A DNA stretch of 60,339 nt from Candidatus Moraniibacteriota bacterium (lineage in GTDB: Bacteria; Patescibacteriota; Minisyncoccia; Moranbacterales; UBA1568): contig JBBQYU010000001.1 of NCBI GenBank assembly GCA_038208355.1, positions 1 to 60,339 of the forward strand, in the 5' to 3' direction. Made by a program: the position numbers and the translations under genes. The notes beneath the pieces were generated by a model. That model was not told the DNA's origin. It was given only the letters and a program-made list of their open reading frames with translations, and did not search any database. This document shows positions 1,277-48,194 of the stretch, piece after piece. The first letter of the stretch is position 1. Each line of letters starts with the position of its first letter.

Positions 1277-1678
1277 GGGGTTGTTTAGATTCGACAGGCT
1301 GTACTTTCAAAATAGGCAAGCCGACCTTGAGGAGATGGTCGTAAATATCCTTCTCACGATGATAAATGCAAACTTCATCACCAAGGCAAAGAACGTATTA
1401 GCGCAAGCTTTTGCTCCTTCTTTCGCTCTCGCACTCGCTTAATTGTGAGTCGCCATCGGACTCTTGATTCTCGATAAAGAATCTCCGGTGTCATATTATC
1501 GAGACGTGACCAGAGCATTTCTTTTTCTTTACCCTCTGTGATCGTATTGCCAAAGAAAAGAATGTCCGCAGATTTTGTCTGCTTTCTACTTCGGACATTT
1601 ATACAAAGCCGACTACGCTTGTAGAATATTTTGAAAAAACTGCTCTGGACATGGGTGCAATTCCCATCAACTCCACCA
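1277..1678 (+). ncRNA. ssrA: tmRNA (SsrA), about 402 nt
   Basis: 5' GGGGTTG pairs with 3' CAACTCC-ACCA, giving a 7-bp acceptor stem with G3:U70 and a CCA end. GATTCGACAGG motif at 1288-1298. T-arm ATGGG-TGCAATT-CCCAT. Tag frame 1368-1442: GCA resume codon, ANFITKAKNVLAQAFAPSFALALA, stop. Sits directly after smpB. Confidence 0.88.
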
Positions 1679-2916: not shown

Positions 2917-3327
2917 TTACTTTTTGAACGCGTTTTTCTGTTTCAACACCCACAGCAGACTGGCCATCAAAAGAATCCCCAGCCCATCAATCCCAACATC
3001 TGTAATTTTCGCCCCGCGATTGAGGACAAAAAACTGATGCAATTCATCGGTAGCTGCATAAGCCAGTGAAAAAATCCCCGCCAACAGCATCCATCTTTCA
3101 AAGGTATCTCGGACAAAAAAATGTTTCACCCACCGAAAGGCCAATAGCATGAGCAGGGCGTATTCGAATACATGAGCGCTTTTCCGTTCGATAAAATACC
3201 AAAGCGGCGGATTGGCGGTTGTAGTCTGACTGGCCAGGGAAGAAAAAAAGAAAATCACCCCCATCCAAAAAAGAAGAGTGGCGCTGGAAAAAAATATGAG
3301 CGAAAATGAAGCAGGTTTGGAAGGCAT
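2917..3327 (-). CDS. VanZ-like membrane protein
   Basis: Four TM segments. ERKSAHVFEYALLMLL and ATDELHQFFVLNRGAKITDVGIDGLG match the VanZ family motifs (DK..H...Y ... DE..Q.F...R.....D). Confidence 0.7.
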   Translation of the reverse strand: MPSKPASFSLIFFSSATLLFWMGVIFFFSSLASQTTTANPPLWYFIERKSAHVFEYALLMLLAFRWVKHFFVRDTFERWMLLAGIFSLAYAATDELHQFFVLNRGAKITDVGIDGLGILLMASLLWVLKQKNAFKK

Positions 3328-37816: not shown

Positions 37817-38386
37817 TTACCGCTTCCTCTTCTGATCGAAGAAATACAAATACAAAGCGTACAGAATCACTCCCATCTTGATAACAGACAAAGGGAACCA
37901 AACATTCGTTTGACATCCATCCCATACATACCAGCCAACAATAAACAGTACCGTATACAGCAGTTCCCAAAACCATTGCGGGCGACCACTAGAAACCTGC
38001 CAAAACCCATAGGTAAGATTGAATACCAAAAGCGCCACATACACTATCAAAAGAAACACCCACATTCCTGCCGGCAGGGTAAAGCAACGAACGGTAGCAA
38101 CCGCCCCTCCCACCTCAACCACCGTCATCGCTGCCTCCACATCAATGCGAGGTCCGTGTATTTCCGAAATCTTCAGAACCCTGTCAGACACAACTGGCGG
38201 CGATACCACCTGTTCTACCGCCGTGCTGCGTTCTGAAACACTCCCCTGGTCCGCGGGCTGTGTGCGCCAGAAAAGAGACGACATCGATACAGCCTCCAGC
38301 ACAAAAAACAAAATGATCAGCACGACTACCCCATGCTTCTTCAAAAAGAGAGCCGCTTGTCCAAACAATGCTTGTGCCGATGTCAT
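37817..38386 (-). CDS. polytopic membrane protein, last gene of the fibre locus
   Basis: 189 aa, one N-terminal and about three C-terminal TM. 7-nt gap to the sortase stop. No recognisable motif. Confidence 0.5.
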   Translation of the reverse strand: MTSAQALFGQAALFLKKHGVVVLIILFFVLEAVSMSSLFWRTQPADQGSVSERSTAVEQVVSPPVVSDRVLKISEIHGPRIDVEAAMTVVEVGGAVATVRCFTLPAGMWVFLLIVYVALLVFNLTYGFWQVSSGRPQWFWELLYTVLFIVGWYVWDGCQTNVWFPLSVIKMGVILYALYLYFFDQKRKR

Positions 38387-38392
38387 ACGCGT

Positions 38393-39049
38393 TTAATTAT
38401 CTGAAACCTGCTCCGCAATCACGATAAGGCGCTTGAACGTCGTGCCGGCCGGCCAGCATGTCATGAGTGTGAGTGTCTTTGTGCTTTCGTCGCCCGTCAG
38501 ATACTCTACCTGGTCGGAAGCAACAATCTTCGTCTCTACCACCTTGTACACGAACTTCTCCCGGTTATGAAAGAGGTATATCTCATCACCCTGTCTGAGC
38601 TTGCCTATCAAATAGAACACGGCATTGTAGCGATTGGCCTCATAAAAGTCAACTCCCGAATGGGCAAACAAAAAGACATTCCCCGCTGCCCCGGGATAGC
38701 TCGTCCCCCTGGCATGGGCCACGCCTTGGGTGAGCGCCCGCTGATATTCGGCGGAGTTTTCCCAATCCACGTCAGCAATCACCCTGGCATTAGCGCCAAT
38801 TTTTGGAATAACGATACCGAAGTCCTCATCTACTGGAACAAGTGCCTTGGCCGATGGAACAGCCTGCGCCATCTCCTCTTCTTTTGTCACAACAGGCAGG
38901 TTGTTATCTTTGGCGGAAAATTGATACTTGATCTCTTCCCGGACGACCGGCGCAAAAGTCAGATACAGGATAAAAACGGACATCGCCACAAGGACCATGC
39001 CCGCCCTCTCATAAAGGAAGTTCCGCTGACTATTGTTTGGATTTTCCAT
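38393..39049 (-). CDS. sortase (transpeptidase)
   Basis: TM anchor, FLFAHSG (His), TLTLMTCWP (TLxTC Cys), FKRLIV (Arg). ATG 39049 is preferred; the ORF is open to 39079. Confidence 0.85.
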   Translation of the reverse strand: MENPNNSQRNFLYERAGMVLVAMSVFILYLTFAPVVREEIKYQFSAKDNNLPVVTKEEEMAQAVPSAKALVPVDEDFGIVIPKIGANARVIADVDWENSAEYQRALTQGVAHARGTSYPGAAGNVFLFAHSGVDFYEANRYNAVFYLIGKLRQGDEIYLFHNREKFVYKVVETKIVASDQVEYLTGDESTKTLTLMTCWPAGTTFKRLIVIAEQVSDN

Positions 39050-41156
39050 TGTGACGTTTGCGATACATGAAATAAGCAATCACCAACACCGCAAGTGCCA
39101 TCAGTCCGGAAAGCCAGGGATGCTGCTGCAACCAATTTCCCACTACTTCAACGGCCGTCGCTTCACCCAAAACAGCACCCTCTGCTGATTCATTGGTGAC
39201 AGCACCCTGCCCCTCCCCATTGGTCGTTTCTGCTCCTTCTACCGCTCCCTCGGCAGCTGGGCCGGATACCGCAATGGCTCCGGTGGGGGCTGCTCCACCA
39301 GTCTCGATAGTTTTGGTCTTGGTGTGCGTCACGGTGTGTGTGTTGACATGCACATCTTTGTCACCGACAAAGTCCGATCCGAAACCATAGGCATCCACCG
39401 CGCGTAACGCGTAGAAAGAGTCATTACTGCAGCCCGGAGCCGCTTCAGTGAAACTGCCGACGACATCTGATCCGATAACCTGCTCATCGAGTTTGGTGGA
39501 GGCATCAGCCGTAAACGTGGTCGCAGACGAACGGTAGAGCTCGACTTTCACTGTCTTGCCAACATCATTGGCCGTCGTGAAGGTAATAACATTCTGACAG
39601 GACGCATCGTGGCGATCATAGTTGTACGGCGTGCCTGGAGGTGTCGCCACGAGCTTGACCGGAACAGTCACACTCGTTGCCGTCTCACTATCACCGCTGG
39701 TCGTCACGGCTTTGACATAAAACGTGTAGTCGCCGGCAGCCGGTATGACAGTGGCATCCACCTGGCAATCCCCCGAATTTCCGCCGTACGTAGAATCGAG
39801 AGAATAGGTGGCGAACGGTATGATATCGCTATCCTTGTAGCACTCCACCGTAAGAGAACGTCCAAGAATATCCAGAGTGACAAAACCAATCTTGAAATTC
39901 GGAGTATTGACGACTGCCTCCGGTTTTTCTATCTGTACCGCCAGGCTGGCGGCACTGGCGCCCTGCCCCATGAAAAGGAGAGTCCCTGAAAAAAGAGTAA
40001 AAAGAAGAGTTTTCATAAGGACGGAATTATTGGAAGATTCATTCTCTTTCTTCAATCGGCGCCCAAAGAAAGCAAGTCCAATACCGGTGACAAAAAGGAC
40101 GAGAGCGAGAGCAAGCCAGACACCGTTGGCACCAGTGAAAGGCAAGGTGGAAGCTCCGAGAACATACTGGATTTTTTTCTTCGTCTTCTCTATGAGCTTG
40201 TTCTCGTGGTCTGCCGGAACGATGACCGTAGGAGTTGCATCCACTGCCACCGCTACCTGTGTTCCGACGAAATTGTCTGAATCAATCGGGTCGACGGCCA
40301 GGATGCTCCCACTCCCCTGAGAAACTCCGCGGGCAAAAGCGAGGTCGCGATAAAGGCCATCATCCTGCGTATCACTGATTCTCGTCCGATAGGTCACGGT
40401 TTTTGTTTCACCGGCGGCCATATCACCCAGATCCCAAATACCCGGGGAAGCATACGCATGAATGAAAGGAGCCCCGCTTCCGGAGAGAGGAACATACTCG
40501 AAACCTTTCGGCGGGAGGTCGGTCAGTACGACATCATTCACATCGTCATCAAGTGCTGTGACTCGCAGCGTATACTGCACCTCATTCCCCGGCGCTTCGT
40601 CGCCAACCGAATCATTCGTCTTTTCAATCCGGAGACTCGCATGAACTTCCGGAACATCGATGCTTATGGCAACATTGAAATACACTTTTGTATTTTGGTA
40701 TTCATTCCCGGCATTTGGATTGAAGATGAACGTAATCTTGTATTCCTGCGTTCCGAGAGCAGGGAGAGAGCCGAGGTCAATGAGCGTGTCACTGAGATCC
40801 TGAAGCGTTTGGTGTGTGCCACCACCGGGCAGCGTGATGAGACCCGAGCCCACGCGCTCTATCGTGACGTCAATCTGCTCCTCGAGCTCAAAAGGGGGAT
40901 TTGGTACGAGCCCCTGTGAGAGATCGATGTGGAGACTCATGACGATATTCTGGGGAGTGCCAGTCAAATTCCGGACGGTCATCTTGTCCATAAACACATC
41001 TCCCGGCAAGATATTGGTATGAGTGATAAAGGGGTTGGTACCAATGACTTCTATCACATCGATCAAGTCTGGATCGACAGCCGAAACCGGCTCGGCCCAC
41101 GCAAGGAACGCGAGAGCGAAGAAGGTGCCGATAAAAATGTTCTTGTGCATACGCAT
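39030..41156 (-). CDS. bipartite surface protein with an internal LPFTG sorting signal followed in frame by a second signal-peptide-led module
   Basis: aa 1-26 signal (AWAEPVSA). DUF11-like fold (LRIEKTNDSVGDEAPGNEVQYTLRVT). LPFTG (40134-40148) plus TM plus RRLKK at aa 337-370. Then MKTLLFTLFSGTLLFMGQGASAAS (M381 = 40016), beta-rich region, C-terminal TM plus KRHNGKSKQ. Confidence 0.75.
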   Translation of the reverse strand: MRMHKNIFIGTFFALAFLAWAEPVSAVDPDLIDVIEVIGTNPFITHTNILPGDVFMDKMTVRNLTGTPQNIVMSLHIDLSQGLVPNPPFELEEQIDVTIERVGSGLITLPGGGTHQTLQDLSDTLIDLGSLPALGTQEYKITFIFNPNAGNEYQNTKVYFNVAISIDVPEVHASLRIEKTNDSVGDEAPGNEVQYTLRVTALDDDVNDVVLTDLPPKGFEYVPLSGSGAPFIHAYASPGIWDLGDMAAGETKTVTYRTRISDTQDDGLYRDLAFARGVSQGSGSILAVDPIDSDNFVGTQVAVAVDATPTVIVPADHENKLIEKTKKKIQYVLGASTLPFTGANGVWLALALVLFVTGIGLAFFGRRLKKENESSNNSVLMKTLLFTLFSGTLLFMGQGASAASLAVQIEKPEAVVNTPNFKIGFVTLDILGRSLTVECYKDSDIIPFATYSLDSTYGGNSGDCQVDATVIPAAGDYTFYVKAVTTSGDSETATSVTVPVKLVATPPGTPYNYDRHDASCQNVITFTTANDVGKTVKVELYRSSATTFTADASTKLDEQVIGSDVVGSFTEAAPGCSNDSFYALRAVDAYGFGSDFVGDKDVHVNTHTVTHTKTKTIETGGAAPTGAIAVSGPAAEGAVEGAETTNGEGQGAVTNESAEGAVLGEATAVEVVGNWLQQHPWLSGLMALAVLVIAYFMYRKRHNGKSKQ

Positions 41157-41165
41157 ATCGTTGAT

Positions 41166-43298
41166 CTATGATTCGTTACTCGGAGCGGTTTCCGGCTCTT
41201 TCACGACCGGTTCTACCACATCAGCCGGGGGCGCTTGATCGACGGCCTTCGGTTCTTCCCCTGCCGTGACTTCGCTCGGAGTTGTTTCCGTGGGAGTTTC
41301 TTTAATAACTTGCTCTTCTTTTGCTACCGGAATCTCCTCAGGAACACTGCCAGCCACAGTATCCGGCGTTCCAGACGTTTCCGTACCCGTAACCACAGGA
41401 ACTTCGGTTTCGGACGGGACAGTTCCTGTATCTTGAACCACAGTCTCGTCAGACGCTCCGGACTCTTGCAACAACGCAGCCAATTTCTTGGTCTCACGAT
41501 CAAGGACGCGGTCGAGTATCCCCAAAATGACATCATCATTTATCTTCTGGTCATCCGCTTCCTTGAGCATGCCCAGATACAGGAGGAACACAGGCGAACA
41601 AATCGCCTCACGATTACCCTTCTTCAGTTTTTCATTCTCAAAACAGGTATCAAACGTCAACAACTGGAAATCGCTCATCTCTTGTTTGTTCATTGCGTTT
41701 TCTTTGCCCGGCGTAGCCTCTGGATCGATCCAGATGCCCTCACCATCAGGGAAACGAGCGAACGATTTGCCTTCCGGCAGGGCGCCCGCGTTAGTATAGC
41801 TCACGGTATCTTCTCGCACATCGTCGGTCGCAACATCCACTGCCAGTGGGTTGTAAAGCGAAAGGGTATCCGCATCATTATCCAGGAACTTCTGCTCGAG
41901 ATAGACCACCAACTGGCCATGGCCGGGCACCAGCGTATCGCCACTTTCCGTATTGGCGGCCGAAATCACAATCTGATCGCCAGCGGCATTGGTGATGTAC
42001 CAGCCTGTCACATCAATCGGGGTGTCGAGGATATTGTAAAGTTCAATCCATTCGCCATTTGGACGACTAGCGTCATCCTCACCAATTGGATTGGGCACGA
42101 ATTCATTGAGCACAATCGGGGAAAGATTGGCAGCCTTCGGCGTGCCATAGTTATTACCCACAGCGTCCCAGTACGGAGCACCATTGGCCGCACCCGAGAC
42201 ACAGGCGTGCCAGCTTCCAACCAGGAGACCATCACCCGGAATATCATTACGCTCCATAGACTGCTCAAATGGCGTACTAGAGCCATGGTTCCCTGCCGCC
42301 CAATTCGGAGCGCCCAGGGCGCTATCGATGACGAGATTGGTGTTACTCTTCAGGACCAGGTTTCCGTTCCCAGTATTATTGAGTTCTACATTGGTCGTTA
42401 CCCAATCAGGAGCAACGTCTAACGCTGAATTGGCATCGGTTTTTTCATAATTAGCAATCAGGAAATATCCGTGGGCGGGAATGAATTTTCCACTTGGTAT
42501 TGTCAGTATTCCTCCGCTCACCGACGAAGCATTCTCGATCTTCCAGCCGGCAATCGGGATAGCGCTCCCCGTCATATTGCGGAGCTCAATCCACTCATCA
42601 TGGGAATTCACCGTCGAACCCATCCACATCACCTCGTTCAACACCACATCGCCCGCGGTCAGCCATTCGCCGGTCGTCACACTATGGACGCCCGCCGTCT
42701 CCGTATCGACAAAACCGGTACCATCATCAGGCAAGTTCGTCTGCCATGCGTGCAGATCAAAATTCCAACTACAATTTTTGTTCTCAAGCGTACCACCGGC
42801 ATCGGCAGGCAGTTCGAGCGCGAAATTCCACTTGTCCTGGCCGAAAACAGGGATAGTATAGGGGCTGCCCGCGATGCTGGCGCTATCAAAGTCCTTGAGG
42901 GGGAGCTTATCATACACCACTGTGCCACCACGCTTGGCGGTCAAAAGGAGGGCACTGCAAAGCCCCATATCTCCTCCCGTGTTGCGGTATTTCACCTGGT
43001 ACTGAAAATCGAGGCCGCCCTCGTTCTTAAAGGTCATATTCTGACTGGGATTGTCCTCTGGCGTCATACCTGTCACCAAGAACTGTTCGAGGTAACTGAC
43101 CCGCCCATCGAGACTGGCGGCCGTGAAAGAATTACCCGTACTTTCTTCAATATCAGAAAATCCCGCGTTCGTCCCACCGATTCGCGTCACCCCCACAAAC
43201 AAAACAAGCACCAAAAAGGCCATCGTCACCTTCCGCATCGATTGCAGAATGCGCTTGGTAATCACTGACTGATATTTTTTAGACGGTCGTTTTTTCAT
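41166..43298 (-). CDS. SipW-signal protein with TasA-like N-domain, two lamin-tail domains (LTD) and an acidic Pro/Glu/Thr tail
   Basis: RIGGTNAGFSDIEESTGNSFTAASLD. LTD1 VVLNEVMWMGS..DEWIELRNMTGSAIPIAGWKI. LTD2 IVLNEFVPNPIG..GEWIELYNILDTPIDVTGWYI. Confidence 0.75.
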   Translation of the reverse strand: MKKRPSKKYQSVITKRILQSMRKVTMAFLVLVLFVGVTRIGGTNAGFSDIEESTGNSFTAASLDGRVSYLEQFLVTGMTPEDNPSQNMTFKNEGGLDFQYQVKYRNTGGDMGLCSALLLTAKRGGTVVYDKLPLKDFDSASIAGSPYTIPVFGQDKWNFALELPADAGGTLENKNCSWNFDLHAWQTNLPDDGTGFVDTETAGVHSVTTGEWLTAGDVVLNEVMWMGSTVNSHDEWIELRNMTGSAIPIAGWKIENASSVSGGILTIPSGKFIPAHGYFLIANYEKTDANSALDVAPDWVTTNVELNNTGNGNLVLKSNTNLVIDSALGAPNWAAGNHGSSTPFEQSMERNDIPGDGLLVGSWHACVSGAANGAPYWDAVGNNYGTPKAANLSPIVLNEFVPNPIGEDDASRPNGEWIELYNILDTPIDVTGWYITNAAGDQIVISAANTESGDTLVPGHGQLVVYLEQKFLDNDADTLSLYNPLAVDVATDDVREDTVSYTNAGALPEGKSFARFPDGEGIWIDPEATPGKENAMNKQEMSDFQLLTFDTCFENEKLKKGNREAICSPVFLLYLGMLKEADDQKINDDVILGILDRVLDRETKKLAALLQESGASDETVVQDTGTVPSETEVPVVTGTETSGTPDTVAGSVPEEIPVAKEEQVIKETPTETTPSEVTAGEEPKAVDQAPPADVVEPVVKEPETAPSNES

Positions 43299-43330
43299 CT
43301 TTACTCTGTAAAACTCAGCATACCTATGGC

Positions 43331-43927
43331 TTAAGATTCTTCCCCAGTCGAATCCTGCTTCGCAGGAGCACCTTCAGTGCTATTCGACGGGGCAGGGCGC
43401 TTTTCTACTCGACGTTTGTAATCCGCTTTTTTCTTCAGCTCTCTCCGAATCTTCTGCGCTTCTTCATAAATAATCAGTACTGCCGGAATAACGATAATCA
43501 ACCCAAAGCCCCAAGGCTGCTGCGCCGTAGCGACGGCATAGCCGATATAGGGGACAGAGAAGAGCACTTTGCCGATAATCTCATAGCGACTGACCGTGCG
43601 CATATCCTCACCATTGTTGGCATCACCGCGTGTAACAAATCCGCCCTCTTTCACTTCCATGATGCGATGGGTGGTCGGCGTCTTTCCCTTGCTCTTGGGG
43701 CCAAAGGTAATGACGTCGCCTACACGATAGTCAGCCATAGGCTTTATCACTACCACGCTTCCGGTCTTGATAGCCGGCTCCATACTCCCCGACTGCACCA
43801 CATAGGTTTTGATGCCTCCGGGCACCGGCACCGCCGACGCAATGAGTACCACCGCCACGAGCGCAATAGCTGCGTAGAAGAGATAGGCCAAGACCTTGAA
43901 TATTCTGTCTGATGTTCCTTGCGCCAT
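43331..43927 (-). CDS. sipW: SipW-type (S26B, ER/archaeal-like) signal peptidase I
   Basis: VQSGSMEPAIKTGSVVVI (Ser), TTHRIMEV (His), VTRGDANNGED. ATG 43927 is preferred because the earlier ATG 43987 lies inside the 43974-44000 hairpin. Confidence 0.85.
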   Translation of the reverse strand: MAQGTSDRIFKVLAYLFYAAIALVAVVLIASAVPVPGGIKTYVVQSGSMEPAIKTGSVVVIKPMADYRVGDVITFGPKSKGKTPTTHRIMEVKEGGFVTRGDANNGEDMRTVSRYEIIGKVLFSVPYIGYAVATAQQPWGFGLIIVIPAVLIIYEEAQKIRRELKKKADYKRRVEKRPAPSNSTEGAPAKQDSTGEES

Positions 43928-43973
43928 AGTTTTTGCTTCGGTCTCTTTTTTAATACACGATAAGACCTTTATC

Positions 43974-44000
43974 CTCCCGCCTTCCATGTGAAGGCGGGAG
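43974..44000 (-). promoter_or_regulatory. intercistronic GC hairpin between fibre-subunit gene and sipW
   Basis: CTCCCGCCTT-CCATGTG-AAGGCGGGAG, 10-bp stem, no U-tract. Confidence 0.6.
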
Positions 44001-44028
44001 TAAAAAGCCTGAACGTCAGGATTTTCTA

Positions 44029-45369
44029 TTAGTGAGGCGCGCTGTCTGCGGCCACTGCGGGCGTGAGGTCAACCTGATCACACGAGAACTCGCTATTGTT
44101 TCTCTGCTGCACCGCGTAGGCGACAAAGTCAGAGATGACCTTGTCGGTCTGGGCCTTATTACCCATACCATTGCCATCACAACTGACGGCTGGCGTATCC
44201 GAACTGGTCGATGGACCGGTCTGGGTTCCCGCACACCAGGTGAAGCCGACGAAATCAATCGGCGCCGGGCTTGAGAGCGCCAGCGGAATCATGGTGTTGA
44301 GACTACGCATCGGCGTACCCGCATTGACCAAGACATCCTCGGTCGGAGCGTCGAAGACGCCGTTGTTATTCTTGTCATTCCAGACGAAGAATTGGAGCTC
44401 GCCTGAAAGCTCGCCGGTTGTAGCATCATCACCGAGAGCTACTTCCGGATCAACAAGACCATTCTCGTCGTCCTGAATATTGGTCGGGAGGAGACAGACA
44501 TAAGCGTCATTGGTGTAAACATGAAGAGAAATGACGTTTGTGCCATAATCCCCCGGCTTCACATCGGTGAAATTCCAGAAAGTATCTCCTTGAGTGAGGT
44601 CCTTTTCACCCCAGAGGGTGCACGTTCCACCATTTGTGTACGCAAAGGGCGTACAGTTCAAAGCGTGTACCGCAATGTCATCAAGATAGCCACCAAGGGT
44701 ATCTGCTTGGTTCCCAGCATCAGCAAATTTGACCGTTGTCTGGGTGTCGAGTGCAATAAAGTTATACGTCTCTTGTGTCCACGAGGTAGCCGATCCGCCG
44801 ATTGATGAATTTTCAACGGTGCTATTTATCATGACACCGCTTGTCGATGTTACGAGAACCGTCCAAGCAATCGTGTTATCTCCCGCAGGACCATTATTTG
44901 GTCGCGGTGAGTGCCAAAAAGTCAACCGATATTTCTGGCCAGGTACCGTACTGATGACCTGCTCTATCGTTGACTGACTACCGGCTCCGTGGCTATCCAA
45001 CTCAGCGAGCTGGCTGCCTCCGTGGGGGTTGCCTGCTGCATGGTCTTGAATTTCAAGACCGGCACCGCCCACAACAGCCCAACCAGGAACAGTAGTGCCT
45101 GTATATACCTGCCACTGACCATTTGAGAGATTTGGGTCTTCAAATCCGCCGTTCACGATAAGATCTGTATCTTCTTCGGTGCATTCTCCCACACATTCCT
45201 GGCCATCATACGAGGCGTAGGTGTGGTCCACTTTGAGGTCGATGGCACCAGCGGTGAAGATGTTCCCATTGGACGTCTCCGTGTCGCTGAAGAGCGCTCT
45301 CGTTCCCCCGACTGCGACCGCTGCCACCGCAGCAATCGTACTCAGACTAATTAATATTTTCTTGTTCAT
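44029..45369 (-). CDS. TasA/camelysin-like fibre subunit with SipW-cognate signal and DUF642-like insert
   Basis: MNKKILISLSTIAAVAAVAVGGTRALFSDTETSNGNIFTAGAIDLKVD. Insert FEDPNLSNGQWQVY..VPGWAV...GGSQLAELD...GQKYRLTFWHSPR. Confidence 0.8.
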   Translation of the reverse strand: MNKKILISLSTIAAVAAVAVGGTRALFSDTETSNGNIFTAGAIDLKVDHTYASYDGQECVGECTEEDTDLIVNGGFEDPNLSNGQWQVYTGTTVPGWAVVGGAGLEIQDHAAGNPHGGSQLAELDSHGAGSQSTIEQVISTVPGQKYRLTFWHSPRPNNGPAGDNTIAWTVLVTSTSGVMINSTVENSSIGGSATSWTQETYNFIALDTQTTVKFADAGNQADTLGGYLDDIAVHALNCTPFAYTNGGTCTLWGEKDLTQGDTFWNFTDVKPGDYGTNVISLHVYTNDAYVCLLPTNIQDDENGLVDPEVALGDDATTGELSGELQFFVWNDKNNNGVFDAPTEDVLVNAGTPMRSLNTMIPLALSSPAPIDFVGFTWCAGTQTGPSTSSDTPAVSCDGNGMGNKAQTDKVISDFVAYAVQQRNNSEFSCDQVDLTPAVAADSAPH

Positions 45370-45393
45370 AACGATTTATTGAATGATTACGAG

Positions 45394-46749
45394 TTAGTTC
45401 TCAAAATCAGTCTTCTCCGAGTTAAACTGAATCCAATCAACAACGCCCTCTTCACCAGTTGGTCCTGGGTGTCCAACGCGAACACCAAGCCAGGAATCAG
45501 TAGAGCGAGTTTCTGCGTTCGGGTAATCAGCCACAATAGCAGACCATGTTCGATTTGTAGAACCTGAGAAAGGTACGGTCGTGGTTGATCCCACTGGCCA
45601 ATTTCCTCCTGACAAGTGCCACATCTCAGCCAGAGCATCCACTTCGGTCCAGGTACTAACTGGTATAGTGGCTGAAGATTGTACTAAGCGTCGTTGCCAG
45701 GTATCACTATTGTTAAAGTCAATATTGAAGTTGAGGTATGGTGATCCACCTGAGACTGAAGGATCATAGACACGATACTTCAGCGTATTGATATTACTCA
45801 ACTTCACGTCCTTATACTTGTAGGTAGCAATATTATACCGAGGATCAGTTTCTGAGCCGAGCACCATCTTGGCACCCCCTGACCCAGCGACGGACTCCAT
45901 ATGATTTTGACCACCTGTACTACTAAACTGATCAATGATCATGACAGTGTCATTGGTGTCATCGTAGAAGAACCATTTCCCGTTCCCATTGGCGGTCACT
46001 TTGCTACCTGTTTCAAGACCGGCCTGATGAACCACGGTGGTGATTCCATCTGAACACTTAAACGCTCCGTTGTTGCGAGCCTGGACGACATTGAAACTGA
46101 TATCGCCTGTCATACTGTCCGTCTGGACTTCGTTTCCGGTCCCGATCGGAAGGCTCCAAGCTACCCCAAGGTAGCCAGTGGTACCACCGGCCAAGGGGCC
46201 TGTTTCTGTAGCTGAGTCATAGATGGCCCAAACATCGTCCTGAGGAGCTCCAGTATAGAGCACTTCCTCTGTTCCGTTTTGAATATTGTCGCCTGCGATT
46301 CCGCTACCAGCACCGTTGTCTCTCCAAACGGTGAGAACAAGGTTTTGCTGGAGCTCACCCACACTTTGAGTAGTATCACCAGCCTCGCCTTCTGGCTCGT
46401 TGATGCCATTTTCATCATTGGTAAGCCCAGAAACCGTCGCACAAACCCACGCATCATTGTTGATTACGTGCAGGCTGATAGTGTTTTCACCACTATCCCC
46501 AGGTTTCACATCACCGAAGTTGAAGAATTTATCGGCTGTGGGAACCAAATCTTTTTCAGCCCAAGTCGCAGCAGCGACAGAGACACCATTATAGGTAGCC
46601 GTACTGTCTACCTTCAGGTCGATGGCCCCGGCGGTGAAGGTATTGCCCATCGAAGTCTCCGTGTCACTGAAGAACGCGCTCGTTCCACCGATCACCACCG
46701 CGGCTACCGCGCCGATGACCGAGAGACTCATAATTATTTTTTTATTCAT
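45394..46749 (-). CDS. TasA/camelysin-like fibre subunit with SipW-cognate signal and C-terminal jelly-roll-like domain
   Basis: MNKKIIMSLSVIGAVAAVVIGGTSAFFSDTETSMGNTFTAGAIDLKVD. FNFGDVKPGDSGENTISLHVINNDAWVC parallels the same block in 44029-45369. Confidence 0.8.
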   Translation of the reverse strand: MNKKIIMSLSVIGAVAAVVIGGTSAFFSDTETSMGNTFTAGAIDLKVDSTATYNGVSVAAATWAEKDLVPTADKFFNFGDVKPGDSGENTISLHVINNDAWVCATVSGLTNDENGINEPEGEAGDTTQSVGELQQNLVLTVWRDNGAGSGIAGDNIQNGTEEVLYTGAPQDDVWAIYDSATETGPLAGGTTGYLGVAWSLPIGTGNEVQTDSMTGDISFNVVQARNNGAFKCSDGITTVVHQAGLETGSKVTANGNGKWFFYDDTNDTVMIIDQFSSTGGQNHMESVAGSGGAKMVLGSETDPRYNIATYKYKDVKLSNINTLKYRVYDPSVSGGSPYLNFNIDFNNSDTWQRRLVQSSATIPVSTWTEVDALAEMWHLSGGNWPVGSTTTVPFSGSTNRTWSAIVADYPNAETRSTDSWLGVRVGHPGPTGEEGVVDWIQFNSEKTDFEN

Positions 46750-47233: not shown

Positions 47234-48040
47234 TCAGCTTTTTACTGCGTTCCGCCGGCCAGACAGCCGTACAGCACCAAGCCCGAACAGTCCAATGCCC
47301 AGAAGAGCAAATGAGGCTGGCTCCGGAACCTGCGACGTGGGTGTGTTCGACCAATGAGCAGTATAGTCCGAGCAGACAGCGGCCTGGAGACTGGCGTCTC
47401 CGCAAAAGTTGTATGCCTGCATGATGCCAGCCGAGAACCCGGTCGAGCCGTTGATGGTCGCATCCGTGTACGCCAAGGTGTCGTTGATCCGATACTCGTA
47501 GGACGAGCCGGTGAACTCCATGGAAAACGCCGTCCACGTATCGTAGGCGACGGCTAGGGCAAGATTGACCCAGCTGGTATCGTCCCAGACGCGGAGAACG
47601 GGAGTGCCTCCATAGTTGGTGAACCCGATAATCGGATAGTCTGTCACAGCAGAACCATCGGTCATCACGCCCCACACATCGGTGCGCCGACTGCCGAGAG
47701 ATGAGTCACCCCACGATGCTGGGATATAGAGATCCGCCGAAAGAACCGATCCGACACCACCAGTGAGCGCATGTTGCCGCCCCTGCGTGTTGTAAAAGGC
47801 ACTCTGATAGCCTCCCGGCCGATTTGAGTACCCTTCCGCTGAGGTGATACCAATACCCAGGACATTGTCGCGCCCTTGATAGGTCCCGACGTTCTGGAAG
47901 CTGTTTGGATCAAAGCGATCCGTCGTCCAGCCTGTCGGCACACTGGCAAAATCCGGCATGATTGGGGTGGCCTGTGCGGTGGCGATGATTCCCGCAAACA
48001 AAACCCCTGCCCACACGCCCTTGAAAAGAACTTTTTTCAT
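47234..48040 (-). CDS. PEP-CTERM sorting-domain protein
   Basis: Signal MKKVLFKGVWAGVLFAGIIATAQA. C-terminus VPEPASFALLGIGLFGLGAVRLSGRR (PEP, TM, Arg cluster). ATG 48040; the ORF is open to 48109. Confidence 0.8.
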   Translation of the reverse strand: MKKVLFKGVWAGVLFAGIIATAQATPIMPDFASVPTGWTTDRFDPNSFQNVGTYQGRDNVLGIGITSAEGYSNRPGGYQSAFYNTQGRQHALTGGVGSVLSADLYIPASWGDSSLGSRRTDVWGVMTDGSAVTDYPIIGFTNYGGTPVLRVWDDTSWVNLALAVAYDTWTAFSMEFTGSSYEYRINDTLAYTDATINGSTGFSAGIMQAYNFCGDASLQAAVCSDYTAHWSNTPTSQVPEPASFALLGIGLFGLGAVRLSGRRNAVKS

Positions 48041-48194
48041 TGCTACAACTCCTGTTGACGGAACGTCACGATTAACGTACCGACAGATATAATAGCCGAT
48101 TATAGCCATTTCGTCAAGCGTGGTAAAATATCACCTGAATAAAAAACAAGGCTGACGCCTTGTTTTGAAAATATTCTGATGTCTTCTCTTACCC

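Follow-up and report, generated by a model that had tools for sequence, protein, structure and literature searches.

A mid-chain sorting signal followed by a second signal peptide in a putative two-in-one sortase substrate of Patescibacteria

The defining feature of sortase substrates is a sorting signal at the C-terminus. Those of Gram-positive bacteria (TIGR01167/PF00746) combine a signal peptide with an LPxTG motif, a hydrophobic segment of ~22 residues, Lys/Arg residues and an adjacent sortase gene. In streptococci, the "C-peps" that are retained in the membrane after sortase A cleavage are short and are degraded or sensed. Internal signal peptides are found in the structural polyproteins of flaviviruses, hepaciviruses and alphaviruses, and their cleavage by signal peptidase is rare in bacteria. 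The Bacillus tapA-sipW-tasA operon contains, to our knowledge, no sortase. Gram-positive sortase pilus islands encode tip, major and basal pilins together with a class C sortase and a SipA/LepA signal-peptidase-like protein (PMC4049620), and a 2026 preprint on the "Pam pilus" of CPR bacteria describes a donor-strand-exchange system and mentions sortase in passing. In the literature that we searched on sortases and LPXTG proteins in Patescibacteria, CPR, Microgenomates and Saccharibacteria, on internal LPXTG motifs and on sortases combined with polyproteins, the architecture presented here is not described, and we found no report of in vivo sortase cleavage at a sorting signal that is not C-terminal.

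Here we analyzed a gene from an uncultured "Moranbacteria" (CPR) genome, located in a stretch of 60,339 nucleotides (the window). Its 708-residue product runs from an N-terminal signal peptide through a beta-sandwich and a CLIPPER/DUF11 domain to LPFTG, a transmembrane segment and RRLKK; beyond a 10-residue linker, a second signal peptide (MKTLL...ASAA) leads into a pair of FN3-like domains, which are followed by a stalk, a transmembrane segment and a basic tail (Table 1). An initial annotation had reported a complete sorting signal in the middle of an open reading frame (ORF), with a second signal peptide in frame behind it. This arrangement is real and lies in a single ORF with the span originally given, on the minus strand, which had not been stated. 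The sorting signal was placed at residues 338–370 instead of 337–370, and the C-terminal end was as described, with 305 residues after residue 403 that close with HPW, a transmembrane segment and a basic tail and contain no LPxTG. The contig index contained no exact match to the protein. In the AF2 model, the two central helices separate well-folded ectodomains, and residues 680–706 form a terminal helix; Foldseek searches with the whole 708-residue model gave generic multi-Ig/FN3 matches only (TM <0.2).

Table 1. Coordinates of the precursor, its parts and the neighboring genes in the window
Feature	Position	Strand	Basis or details
Sortase gene	38393..39049	minus	FAHSG (His), TLMTCWP (Cys), FKRL (Arg); Pfam Sortase 2.5e-24
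Bipartite precursor ORF, 708 aa + stop	39030..41156	minus	ORF call, full-length relatives
Basic tail RKRHNGKSKQ, aa 699–708, predicted cytoplasmic	39033..39062	minus	sequence
HPW + C-terminal membrane anchor TM3, aa 679–698	39063..39122	minus	hydropathy, AF2
Disordered stalk, Thr/Lys-rich then Gly/Ala/Glu-rich, aa 607–678	39123..39338	minus	pLDDT <50, residues 606–669
Second box "VLGE" inside stalk	39162..39173	minus	V662, G664 invariant, L663 nearly so (close relatives)
C-module, two FN3/Ig-like beta-sandwich domains, aa 404–606	39339..39947	minus	AF2 pLDDT 88.6; Foldseek
Putative internal signal peptide TM2 MKTLLFTLFSGTLLFMGQGASAA, aa 381–403	39948..40016	minus	A-S-A-A c-region; AF2 helix 377–394
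Variable linker ENESSNNSVL, aa 371–380	40017..40046	minus	alignment of close relatives
RRLKK charged tail, aa 366–370	40047..40061	minus	predicted cytoplasmic loop
Sorting-signal hydrophobic segment TM1 ANGVWLALALVLFVTGIGLAFFG, aa 343–365	40062..40130	minus	Kyte-Doolittle peak 2.5; AF2 helix 345–371
LPFTG sortase motif, aa 338–342	40131..40145	minus	sequence; L, P, T, G invariant in 31 relatives
Lys-rich stretch + "VLGA" box ENKLIEKTKKKIQYVLGAS, aa 318–336	40149..40205	minus	directly before LPFTG
CLIPPER/DUF11 (CnaA-like) domain, aa 174–303	40248..40637	minus	Pfam PF01345, TIGR01451
N-terminal beta-sandwich domain, aa 35–167	40656..41054	minus	AF2 strands 35–167
N-terminal signal peptide MRMHKNIFIGTFFALAFLAWAEPVSA, aa 1–26	41079..41156	minus	sequence; A26 invariant; AF2 helix 2–19
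710-aa protein, SipW-type signal + two lamin-tail domains	41166..43298	minus	profile matches; 9-nt gap
Signal peptidase I, ER/archaeal-type (SipW-like)	43331..43987	minus	SGSMEP, THRI, GDAN; TIGR02228 114 bits, cut-off 51.85
Two proteins with SipW-dependent-type signal peptides	44029..46749	minus	one DUF642/choice-of-anchor C; conserved in L001–L003

The first 26 residues have the features of a Sec signal peptide, namely a hydrophobic core and VSA, whose last residue is the invariant A26. The beta-sandwich behind them had no match in Pfam and is swapped for other domains in distant relatives; kinship with a neighboring SipW-type-signal protein was considered and rejected (BLASTP E = 0.08). The next domain matches PF01345 over residues 175–263 at 39.4 bits (gathering cut-off 24.6). 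DUF11 has been renamed CLIPPER, has a CnaA-like fold and in some cases is missing the Lys-Asn/Asp isopeptide triad (PMC12617251). The C-module gave no family match against Pfam, NCBIfam or PDB sequences, and its best Foldseek matches were generic tandem FN3 domains, without a functional clue. The tails that follow the module carry VLG boxes across the family. HPW is nearly invariant in close relatives and was considered as a second sorting motif before the last transmembrane segment, which we rejected as it is missing from distant relatives and stand-alone forms.

The initial annotation had suggested comparing orthologs for one ORF or two. We found 31 full-length relatives (693–731 residues, 47–67% identity) in NCBI, ENA, JGI and Logan assemblies, and each is encoded by one ORF; contrary to a uniform two-gene organization, two-gene versions are restricted to more distant relatives (23 of the 44 loci described below). 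Indels in the linker amount to 0–12 codons and are all in frame, and roughly half of the close relatives lack the linker, with the frame kept. All 31 likewise retain the K/R cluster and a further hydrophobic segment that ends in A-x-A. For one ortholog cluster, P0023, the records place members on 7 and on 16 contigs. Close orthologs that have a name are labeled "hypothetical protein."

The four defining LPxTG residues (L338, P339, T341 and G342) are invariant in 31 of 31 full-length relatives, and so are V332, L333, G334 and A335 of the preceding box among close relatives; "EVLGAS" stands ahead of LPxTG across the wider family, in fused and split forms. LPFTG, 23 hydrophobic residues and RRLKK make up the tripartite signal of an LPXTG substrate, and the precursor is the only ORF in the window with this combination. 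The NCBIfam model LPXTG_anchor (TIGR01167) matches residues 338–367 at 15.5 bits, just below its cut-off of 15.9, and the candidate sortase-substrate peptide from this region is VLGASTLPFTGAN. The precursor thus resembles Gram-positive LPXTG substrates in its signal peptide, motif, hydrophobic segment, charged residues and adjacent sortase gene. Unlike in those substrates, the conserved "VLGA" box precedes LPxTG, and the sorting signal, instead of being at the extreme C-terminus, is followed after RRLKK by 338 residues with a second exported protein in frame; it is similarly non-terminal in 134 fused relatives. As LPxTG is invariant in the close relatives and the whole signal recurs in these 134, we conclude from the comparison that the arrangement of LPxTG, transmembrane segment, K/R cluster and second signal peptide is not due to chance.

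Residues 366–403 have the features of a type I (SPase I) signal peptide (RRLKK...MK, TLLFTLFSGTLLFMG and QGASAA), located not at an N-terminus but from about residue 366–381 of a continuous ORF, with its ATG at 40016. RRLKK is predicted to double as the n-region. In family statistics this region equals the N-terminal signal peptides of stand-alone relatives, matching them in length and in its small-x-small site, and the uncharged run of the second hydrophobic segment has a median of 20 residues in fused and stand-alone forms alike. The TM1 equivalents have a median length of 22 residues, and the loop between the two hydrophobic segments has a median of 8 residues and a net charge of +4, which fits the positive-inside rule.

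An exhaustive search with the C-module alone yielded 500 representatives (E ≤ 1e-3), spread over Microgenomates lineages, Paceibacterota, Saccharibacteria and Moranbacteria, and 184 sequences were examined. In 137 of them the module lies ~300 residues from the C-terminus of proteins of 459–3189 residues, mostly behind VLGA..LPxTG, a transmembrane segment, a K/R cluster and a signal peptide (134 by a motif-based count), and LPxTG is retained in most fused forms at 35–70% identity. About 40 are stand-alone proteins of 306–394 residues in which the module begins right after an N-terminal signal peptide; some of these database entries could be gene-calling truncations, the secure cases being 19 split loci verified in DNA. 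The DNA-level check covered 44 loci, found with a 5-sequence alignment in place of A2, whose 20 sequences were too heterogeneous for this purpose, and gave 20 fused and 23 split loci, the latter including one cut by a contig end. In 19 of the 23 split loci, the upstream ORF ends with VLGAS..LPxTG, a transmembrane segment, K/R and a stop codon, which is exactly the canonical Gram-positive signal at its C-terminal place. Among these 19 loci, 14 show an 8-nt overlap of the C-module ATG with the upstream stop, so that a 1-nt indel would interconvert the fused and split forms. A neighbor-joining tree of 173 modules requires at least 16 switches between the two states, tree and parsimony count both being rough, and one stand-alone/fused pair shares 82% identity; these results speak for functional interchangeability of the fused and split states.

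The start codon of the sortase gene, at 39049, overlaps the 3' end of the precursor gene by 20 nt, and 38 of the 44 loci have a sortase ORF as the next gene downstream on the same strand. The precursor is accompanied, like other LPXTG substrates, by a likely cognate sortase with His, Cys and Arg motifs. This sortase matches the generic model TIGR01076 (63.3 bits, cut-off 39.35) and scores below the cut-off of every sortase class model, the best being class C. The precursor gene is best explained as a conserved fusion within a three-part CPR/Patescibacteria cassette of LPxTG protein, FN3 C-module and sortase. The cluster is reminiscent of sortase pilus islands: it has a CnaA-like (CLIPPER) LPxTG protein, a sortase closest to class C, an Ig-like protein between substrate and sortase, which is the position of the basal pilin, and a gene of the signal peptidase family. 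In contrast to pilus islands, the sortase reaches only 69.3 bits with the class C model NF033745, whose cut-off is 160, YPK is absent from the 708-residue precursor and with it a YPKN-type pilin motif, and the C-module has a transmembrane anchor in place of LPxTG and no invariant Lys. The peptidase, unlike SipA, keeps its catalytic motifs and is accompanied by three proteins with SipW-type signals. One of these, the 710-residue lamin-tail protein, is the direct upstream neighbor of the precursor at L001–L003, and the peptidase occupies the same position at L001 and L002. An upstream SipW-type peptidase with three such proteins recalls the tapA-sipW-tasA and camelysin operons (TIGR04088, TIGR02228), although neither signal peptide of the precursor matches the SipW-type model. 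We found no Shine-Dalgarno sequence ahead of any gene start in the cluster, including the ATG at 40016.

While the anatomy of the sequence, its conservation, the alternation of split and fused forms and the linkage to sortase are directly established, we infer how the chain sits in the membrane, that it is cut at both sites and what the C-module does. Of the three explanations offered by the initial annotation, splitting by sortase holds up as the best comparative reading, and we put at roughly 60% the probability that the gene encodes a two-in-one precursor from which sortase and signal peptidase would release the same two mature surface proteins that overlapping genes encode at about half of the related loci. 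The N-terminal signal peptide would export the beta-sandwich and CLIPPER ectodomain, residues 343–365 would halt transfer with RRLKK remaining in the cytoplasm, and residues 381–403 would re-insert as an internal signal peptide and lead to export of the C-module, the two central segments thereby forming a helical membrane hairpin. The last transmembrane segment and the basic tail would anchor the chain. The sortase from the overlapping gene would then cut LPFTG between Thr and Gly and pass the N-terminal part to a wall precursor or another protein, and signal peptidase would probably cut after A-S-A-A, turning the C-module into a long-stalked type-I membrane protein with the predicted neo-N-terminal peptide SLAVQIEKPEAVVNTPNFK (starting S404-LAVQIEK) and leaving behind a small hairpin remnant. 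Viral polyproteins similarly combine a stop-transfer segment with an internal signal peptide, and membrane-bound peptidases at the outer face free the neighboring ectodomains; the precursor differs in being bacterial, in that one cut would be a sortase transpeptidation and in having no sequence relationship to them. As with streptococcal C-peps, the portion C-terminal to the sortase cut would remain in the membrane, but this leftover would be a chain of ~366 residues with a conserved two-domain module, not a peptide of ~30, and would be, or yield, a full-size conserved surface protein.

A reading that we consider unlikely but credible is that sortase cuts LPFTG while the second segment stays as an uncleaved transmembrane helix, which would give a three-TM protein with the FN3 module between TM2 and TM3. 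Its topology is identical to that of the two-in-one precursor, an uncharged run of ~20 residues is long enough to span the membrane, and it dispenses with an internal cleavage that is unusual in bacteria. However, the small residues at −3/−1 ([AVSTG]xA at most 8 residues from the module) are equally kept in fused (115 of 134) and stand-alone forms (35 of 40), and the first conserved strand of the module starts 1–3 residues past this site, for which a plain transmembrane helix has no need. The conservation of A-x-A could in turn be the unused legacy of a split ancestor, which would speak against cleavage at this site.

Distinctly unlikely, in our view, is that translation starts internally at the ATG at 40016 and yields the second protein on its own. 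Such a start would be a relic of the translational coupling of split relatives, with the read-through fusion as a by-product. Here and in the closest relatives Met381 is followed by Lys, and the ancestral or alternative state consists of two overlapping, presumably coupled, genes. Against this, each ribosome finishing the first half must enter the second, as there is no stop codon between them, and the fused chain is made regardless. A Met within the loop or adjoining it occurs in only 56 of the 134 fused forms. In short-linker forms such as RRRRSVLPVLLLL, the second signal peptide can draw positive charges only from the sorting-signal K/R cluster, which lies upstream of any restart, and a restart would thus yield a signal peptide without a charged n-region. 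A Shine-Dalgarno-like sequence is missing before 40016, but also before every other gene start of the cluster, so that its absence says little either way. These comparisons indicate that internal initiation, the second of the explanations first proposed, is not the general mechanism in the family; some independent initiation is possible for the gene in the window.

It is tempting to speculate that the C-module serves as the membrane-anchored acceptor of its own cassette, such that sortase joins the LPxT-acyl ectodomain to the conserved N-terminus (x-L-S-V-R/K) laid bare by signal peptidase, or to another amine of the module, but we regard this as quite improbable. The membrane hairpin would then be excised and the ectodomains re-joined, in a sortase-plus-signal-peptidase form of protein splicing, and the "VLG[AE]" box common to the substrate and the module tail would act as a sortase docking element. 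If so, very large adhesins would be covalently tethered to a membrane stalk and not to peptidoglycan, which would suit CPR envelopes. A role as a Lys acceptor resembling a basal pilin is weakened by the absence of a conserved Lys: none is invariant or at least 90% conserved in the C-module in alignment A2 (20 sequences).

Very improbable is that the internal LPFTG is an unprocessed relic and the protein works uncut, as a polytopic membrane protein displaying both ectodomains. In its favor, canonical sorting signals are C-terminal; against it, the LPxTG is invariant in the 31 relatives and persists in most fused forms at 35–70% identity, 38 of 44 loci have a sortase gene, predicted to be catalytically intact, that overlaps the ORF or adjoins it, and the precursor is the sole candidate substrate in the window. 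Sortases used for in vitro labeling, moreover, tolerate any sequence C-terminal to LPXTG. A lost stop codon, frameshift, sequencing or assembly error, the remaining explanation in the initial annotation, is effectively refuted: a single indel could fuse split forms that differ by a frame offset at the 8-nt overlap, but across independent assemblies, 31 of 31 full-length relatives are encoded by one uninterrupted ORF whose linker varies without leaving the frame, P0023 is represented on 7 and on 16 contigs, and the family includes 134 fused forms and 20 loci with continuous stop-to-stop ORFs.

In this family the sorting signal sits mid-chain, and instead of a disposable peptide it is followed by a conserved protein. 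Annotation pipelines that seek LPXTG only at C-termini will miss fused substrates, and gene callers or curators may wrongly "repair" fused precursors. If the proposed processing is right, sortase would act here by splitting a polyprotein, an internal signal peptide would be in routine use in bacteria, and CPR bacteria would have a standard cassette of substrate, FN3 module and sortase for their largest surface proteins, of ~3,000 residues. Such large CPR surface proteins are candidates for host attachment, on which episymbionts depend.

The precursor is a single 708-residue ORF on the minus strand, as given by the ORF listing and in agreement with the raw sequence. Every element described in the initial annotation, a complete sortase sorting signal in mid-chain followed in frame by a second signal-peptide-led protein, was recovered (ORF listing, raw sequence, residue mapping, hydropathy, Pfam and NCBIfam), and only the strand had to be added. 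Hydropathy gave four peaks, corresponding to the N-terminal signal peptide, two central segments (TM1 and TM2) and a C-terminal segment (TM3). The NCBIfam LPXTG_anchor model matches residues 338-367 slightly below its cut-off, and Pfam places a DUF11 domain, now named CLIPPER, at residues 175-263. Within the 60-kb window no other ORF combines LPxTG, TM and K/R into such a signal. The AlphaFold2 model of the precursor sets helices 345-371, 377-394 and 680-706 among folded beta domains. Two 'VLG[AE]' boxes are present, one right before LPFTG and one in the part of the stalk that precedes TM3, where V662 and G664 are invariant and L663 nearly so. One or two '(E/Q)VLG[AEDS]' boxes are present in the tails of fused and stand-alone forms of the second half (P0042-P0185), and such a box also precedes LPxTG in split substrates; the box may serve in docking or recognition.

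Features of the precursor and its surroundings in the window
Feature	Residues	Position	Strand	Remarks
Precursor ORF	1-708	39030..41156	minus	
Signal peptide	1-26	41079..41156	minus	
YVLGAS box		40149..40160	minus	
LPFTG	338-342	40131..40145	minus	
Hydrophobic segment	343-365	40062..40130	minus	23 aa
RRLKK	366-370	40047..40061	minus	
Linker	371-380	40017..40046	minus	ENESSNNSVL
MKTLLFTLFSGTLLFMGQGASAA	381-403	39948..40016	minus	ATG at 40016
Last 305 residues	404-708	39033..39947	minus	end: HPW, TM, RKRHNGKSKQ
AVLGEA box		39162..39173	minus	
Sortase		38393..39049	minus	next gene downstream of precursor
189-aa multi-TM protein		37817..38386	minus	directly downstream of sortase
Conserved upstream operon		41166..46749	minus	
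710-aa protein		upstream of precursor	minus	SipW-type signal, two lamin-tail domains
ER/archaeal-type (SipW-like) signal peptidase I		43331..43987	minus	TIGR02228, 114 bits; catalytic motifs intact
DUF642/choice-of-anchor C protein		upstream	minus	SipW-dependent-type signal peptide
451-aa protein		upstream	minus	SipW-dependent-type signal peptide
291-aa secreted protein		47234..48109	minus	ends in SQVPEPASFALLGIGLFGLGAVRLSGRRNAVKS
tmRNA		1277..1678	plus	full length; RF00023, 125 bits, E 1.6e-48

When 5.8 billion proteins were searched by word index with the precursor, 41 matched, 31 of which cover 96-100% of the query (693-731 aa, 47-67% identity) and come from NCBI, ENA, JGI and Logan assemblies; where named, the source is Candidatus Moranbacteria. 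L338, P339, T341 and G342 are invariant in the alignment of these full-length relatives, and TM1, the K/R cluster and the terminal TM are kept by all aligned relatives, as are the conserved second half and a second hydrophobic segment with A-x-A(-A) at its end. The linker between K/R cluster and second segment varies by 0-12 residues, in frame every time, and several sources contribute full-length members of one ortholog cluster (P0023), which are recorded on 7 and on 16 contigs. The earlier suggestion of a stop codon lost by mutation or assembly error is therefore refuted by these single-ORF relatives, in-frame linkers and multiple contigs, as is a frameshift, and it is essentially certain that the conserved fusion is real.

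More distant matches (36-44% identity) have exchanged their N-terminal domains and retain the block of CLIPPER, LPxTG, TM, K/R, signal peptide, second half and TM. Residues 404-625, which include the two FN3/Ig-like domains of the second half (the FN3 module), were compared exhaustively by phmmer with 1.84 billion representatives; 500 proteins reached E<=1e-3, and 103 reached E<=1e-30. Re-location of the module in 184 sequences placed it some 300 aa short of the C-terminus in 137 proteins, which are 459-3189 aa long; in most of these '(E/Q)VLGAS..LPxTG', TM, K/R and a hydrophobic segment ending small-x-small lie in front of it. In about 40 it stood alone (306-394 aa), starting at around residue 26, immediately behind a normal N-terminal signal peptide. 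No Pfam, NCBIfam or PDB-sequence family matched the module; AlphaFold2 folds it into two beta-sandwiches (pLDDT 88.6), with tandem FN3 domains as the best structural matches. The finding is not only non-artefactual but more general than the initial annotation could show.

Scanning one genome per GTDB species yielded 38 further loci, from Daviesbacteria, Chisholmbacteria, Collierbacteria, Gottesmanbacteria, Shapirobacteria, Microgenomates, Paceibacterota, Saccharibacteria, Moraniibacteriota and 'Patescibacteria group'. Many of the cassette-bearing MAG records (within L006-L043) are titled 'uncultured Gammaproteobacteria' or 'Pseudomonadales', labels that are probably wrong because of the CPR-type content and names such as 'HK-STAS-PATE-15'. 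At the locus of one stand-alone module (P0065, L004) the upstream ORF ends in a textbook C-terminal sorting signal, '...EILGASIALPQTGADIKWIIAASLLLTFGVTTFALGIKIRRKYE*', the module ATG overlaps its stop by 8 nt (2930..2950, AGGAGAAAATATGAATAA) and a sortase gene follows; locus L005 is arranged identically. Stop-to-stop ORF analysis of 44 loci gave 20 fused and 23 split ones (one of the 23 cut by a contig end), with a sortase ORF directly downstream on the same strand in 38. Of the 23 split loci, 19 have an upstream ORF that ends in VLGAS..LPxTG, TM and K/R, and 14 of these verified 19 have the exact 8-nt overlap (listed as L005-L017, L028 and L032), a putative conserved translational-coupling junction at which a 1-nt indel or ribosomal frameshift would give the fused form. 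The unit is therefore a three-part cassette of LPxTG protein, FN3 module and sortase, the first two being overlapping genes or one gene. When 173 modules, 133 of them fused and 40 stand-alone, were placed in a neighbour-joining tree, Fitch parsimony required at least 16 fused/split changes, against 36 on average for shuffled states, in an analysis that is rough and may include stand-alone entries that are truncated gene calls. Together with a stand-alone/fused pair sharing 82% module identity, this indicates that the layouts have probably interconverted repeatedly, as expected if both give identical mature products.

The internal signal peptide resembles its stand-alone counterpart: the uncharged run (h and c regions) has a median of 20 aa in both fused (n=134) and stand-alone (n=40) forms, and [AVSTG]xA lies within 8 residues of the module in 115/134 versus 35/40. 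In the fused forms TM1 has a median length of 22 aa and the loop of 8 aa with a net charge of +4. An internal start at 40016 was also put forward initially; across the family, a Met lies inside or beside the loop in 56 of the 134 fused forms. In many short-linker forms (for example RRRRSVLPVLLLLCG...VQAA|NLS) the second signal peptide could draw its n-region from nothing but the sorting signal's K/R cluster, so internal restart is ruled out as the general route and is a side route at most; since there is no stop codon, the fused chain is synthesised in any case. The lack of a Shine-Dalgarno sequence before 40016 says nothing, because none precedes any gene start in the cluster.

The sortase matches Pfam Sortase (2.5e-24) and the generic TIGR01076 model, passes none of the class A-F models, and has its catalytic His, Cys and Arg in FAHSG, TLMTCWP and FKRL; its ATG overlaps the end of the precursor ORF by 20 nt. 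Four further genes lie upstream on the same strand, and the gene order is kept beside orthologs on independent contigs (L001-L003). This conserved operon, a SipW-like peptidase with three proteins bearing SipW-dependent-type signals, points to a TasA/SipW-like secretion set linked to the sortase cassette in CPR. The 189-aa protein, which has no family match, is probably outside the cassette because it is absent from that position in L001 and L002. Elsewhere, the 291-aa protein ends in a PEP-CTERM-type signal (PF07589, 28.4 bits, cut-off 20.7; several NCBIfam PEP-CTERM models match below their cut-offs), an unexpected exosortase-type signal on a sortase-using contig with CPR/Moranbacteria-like neighbours. 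The tmRNA was missed by ARAGORN, which reported 0 genes in the whole window.

The component parts, LPXTG signal, sortase, CLIPPER, FN3 domains and SipW-type peptidases, are of known kinds; CLIPPER is an isopeptide domain, CnaA-like, that occurs in fibrillar adhesins (PMC12617251), and Méheust et al. (PMC6744442) report a sortase family in over half of the CPR genomes. The cluster in the window resembles Gram-positive pilus islands, where a sortase is likewise accompanied by a signal-peptidase-like gene (PMC4049620), whereas the sortase here falls below the class C cut-off and the precursor has no pilin motif. In the literature searched we found no description of a sorting signal that acts mid-chain or of one paired with an internal signal peptide to form a hairpin, nor any of the FN3 module family or the three-part cassette.

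Based on the positive-inside rule, the AlphaFold2 model and comparison with split forms, ectodomain 1 would lie outside, followed by TM1, an inside RRLKK loop, TM2 as internal signal peptide, the FN3 module and stalk outside, TM3 and an inside basic tail. The sortase encoded next to it would cleave LPFT|G, passing ectodomain 1 to an acceptor, and signal peptidase would cut after ASAA. The products would be a surface protein processed by sortase and an FN3 protein held in the membrane as type I on a disordered stalk of about 70 residues, with a small remnant of the hairpin left over. That sortase cleaves the mid-chain site is likely (probability roughly 0.7-0.8), and the odds lean mildly towards cleavage of the internal signal peptide; one precursor yielding two surface proteins is the best supported of the three options first proposed. 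As the family alignment (A2, 20 sequences) has no conserved Lys, a basal-pilin-like Lys-acceptor role for the module is weakened, and use of its N-terminal amine as acceptor ('splicing') is an exciting possibility of low probability. The obligatory place of the module between substrate and sortase suggests that it assists the sortase pathway or acts as a partner in it.
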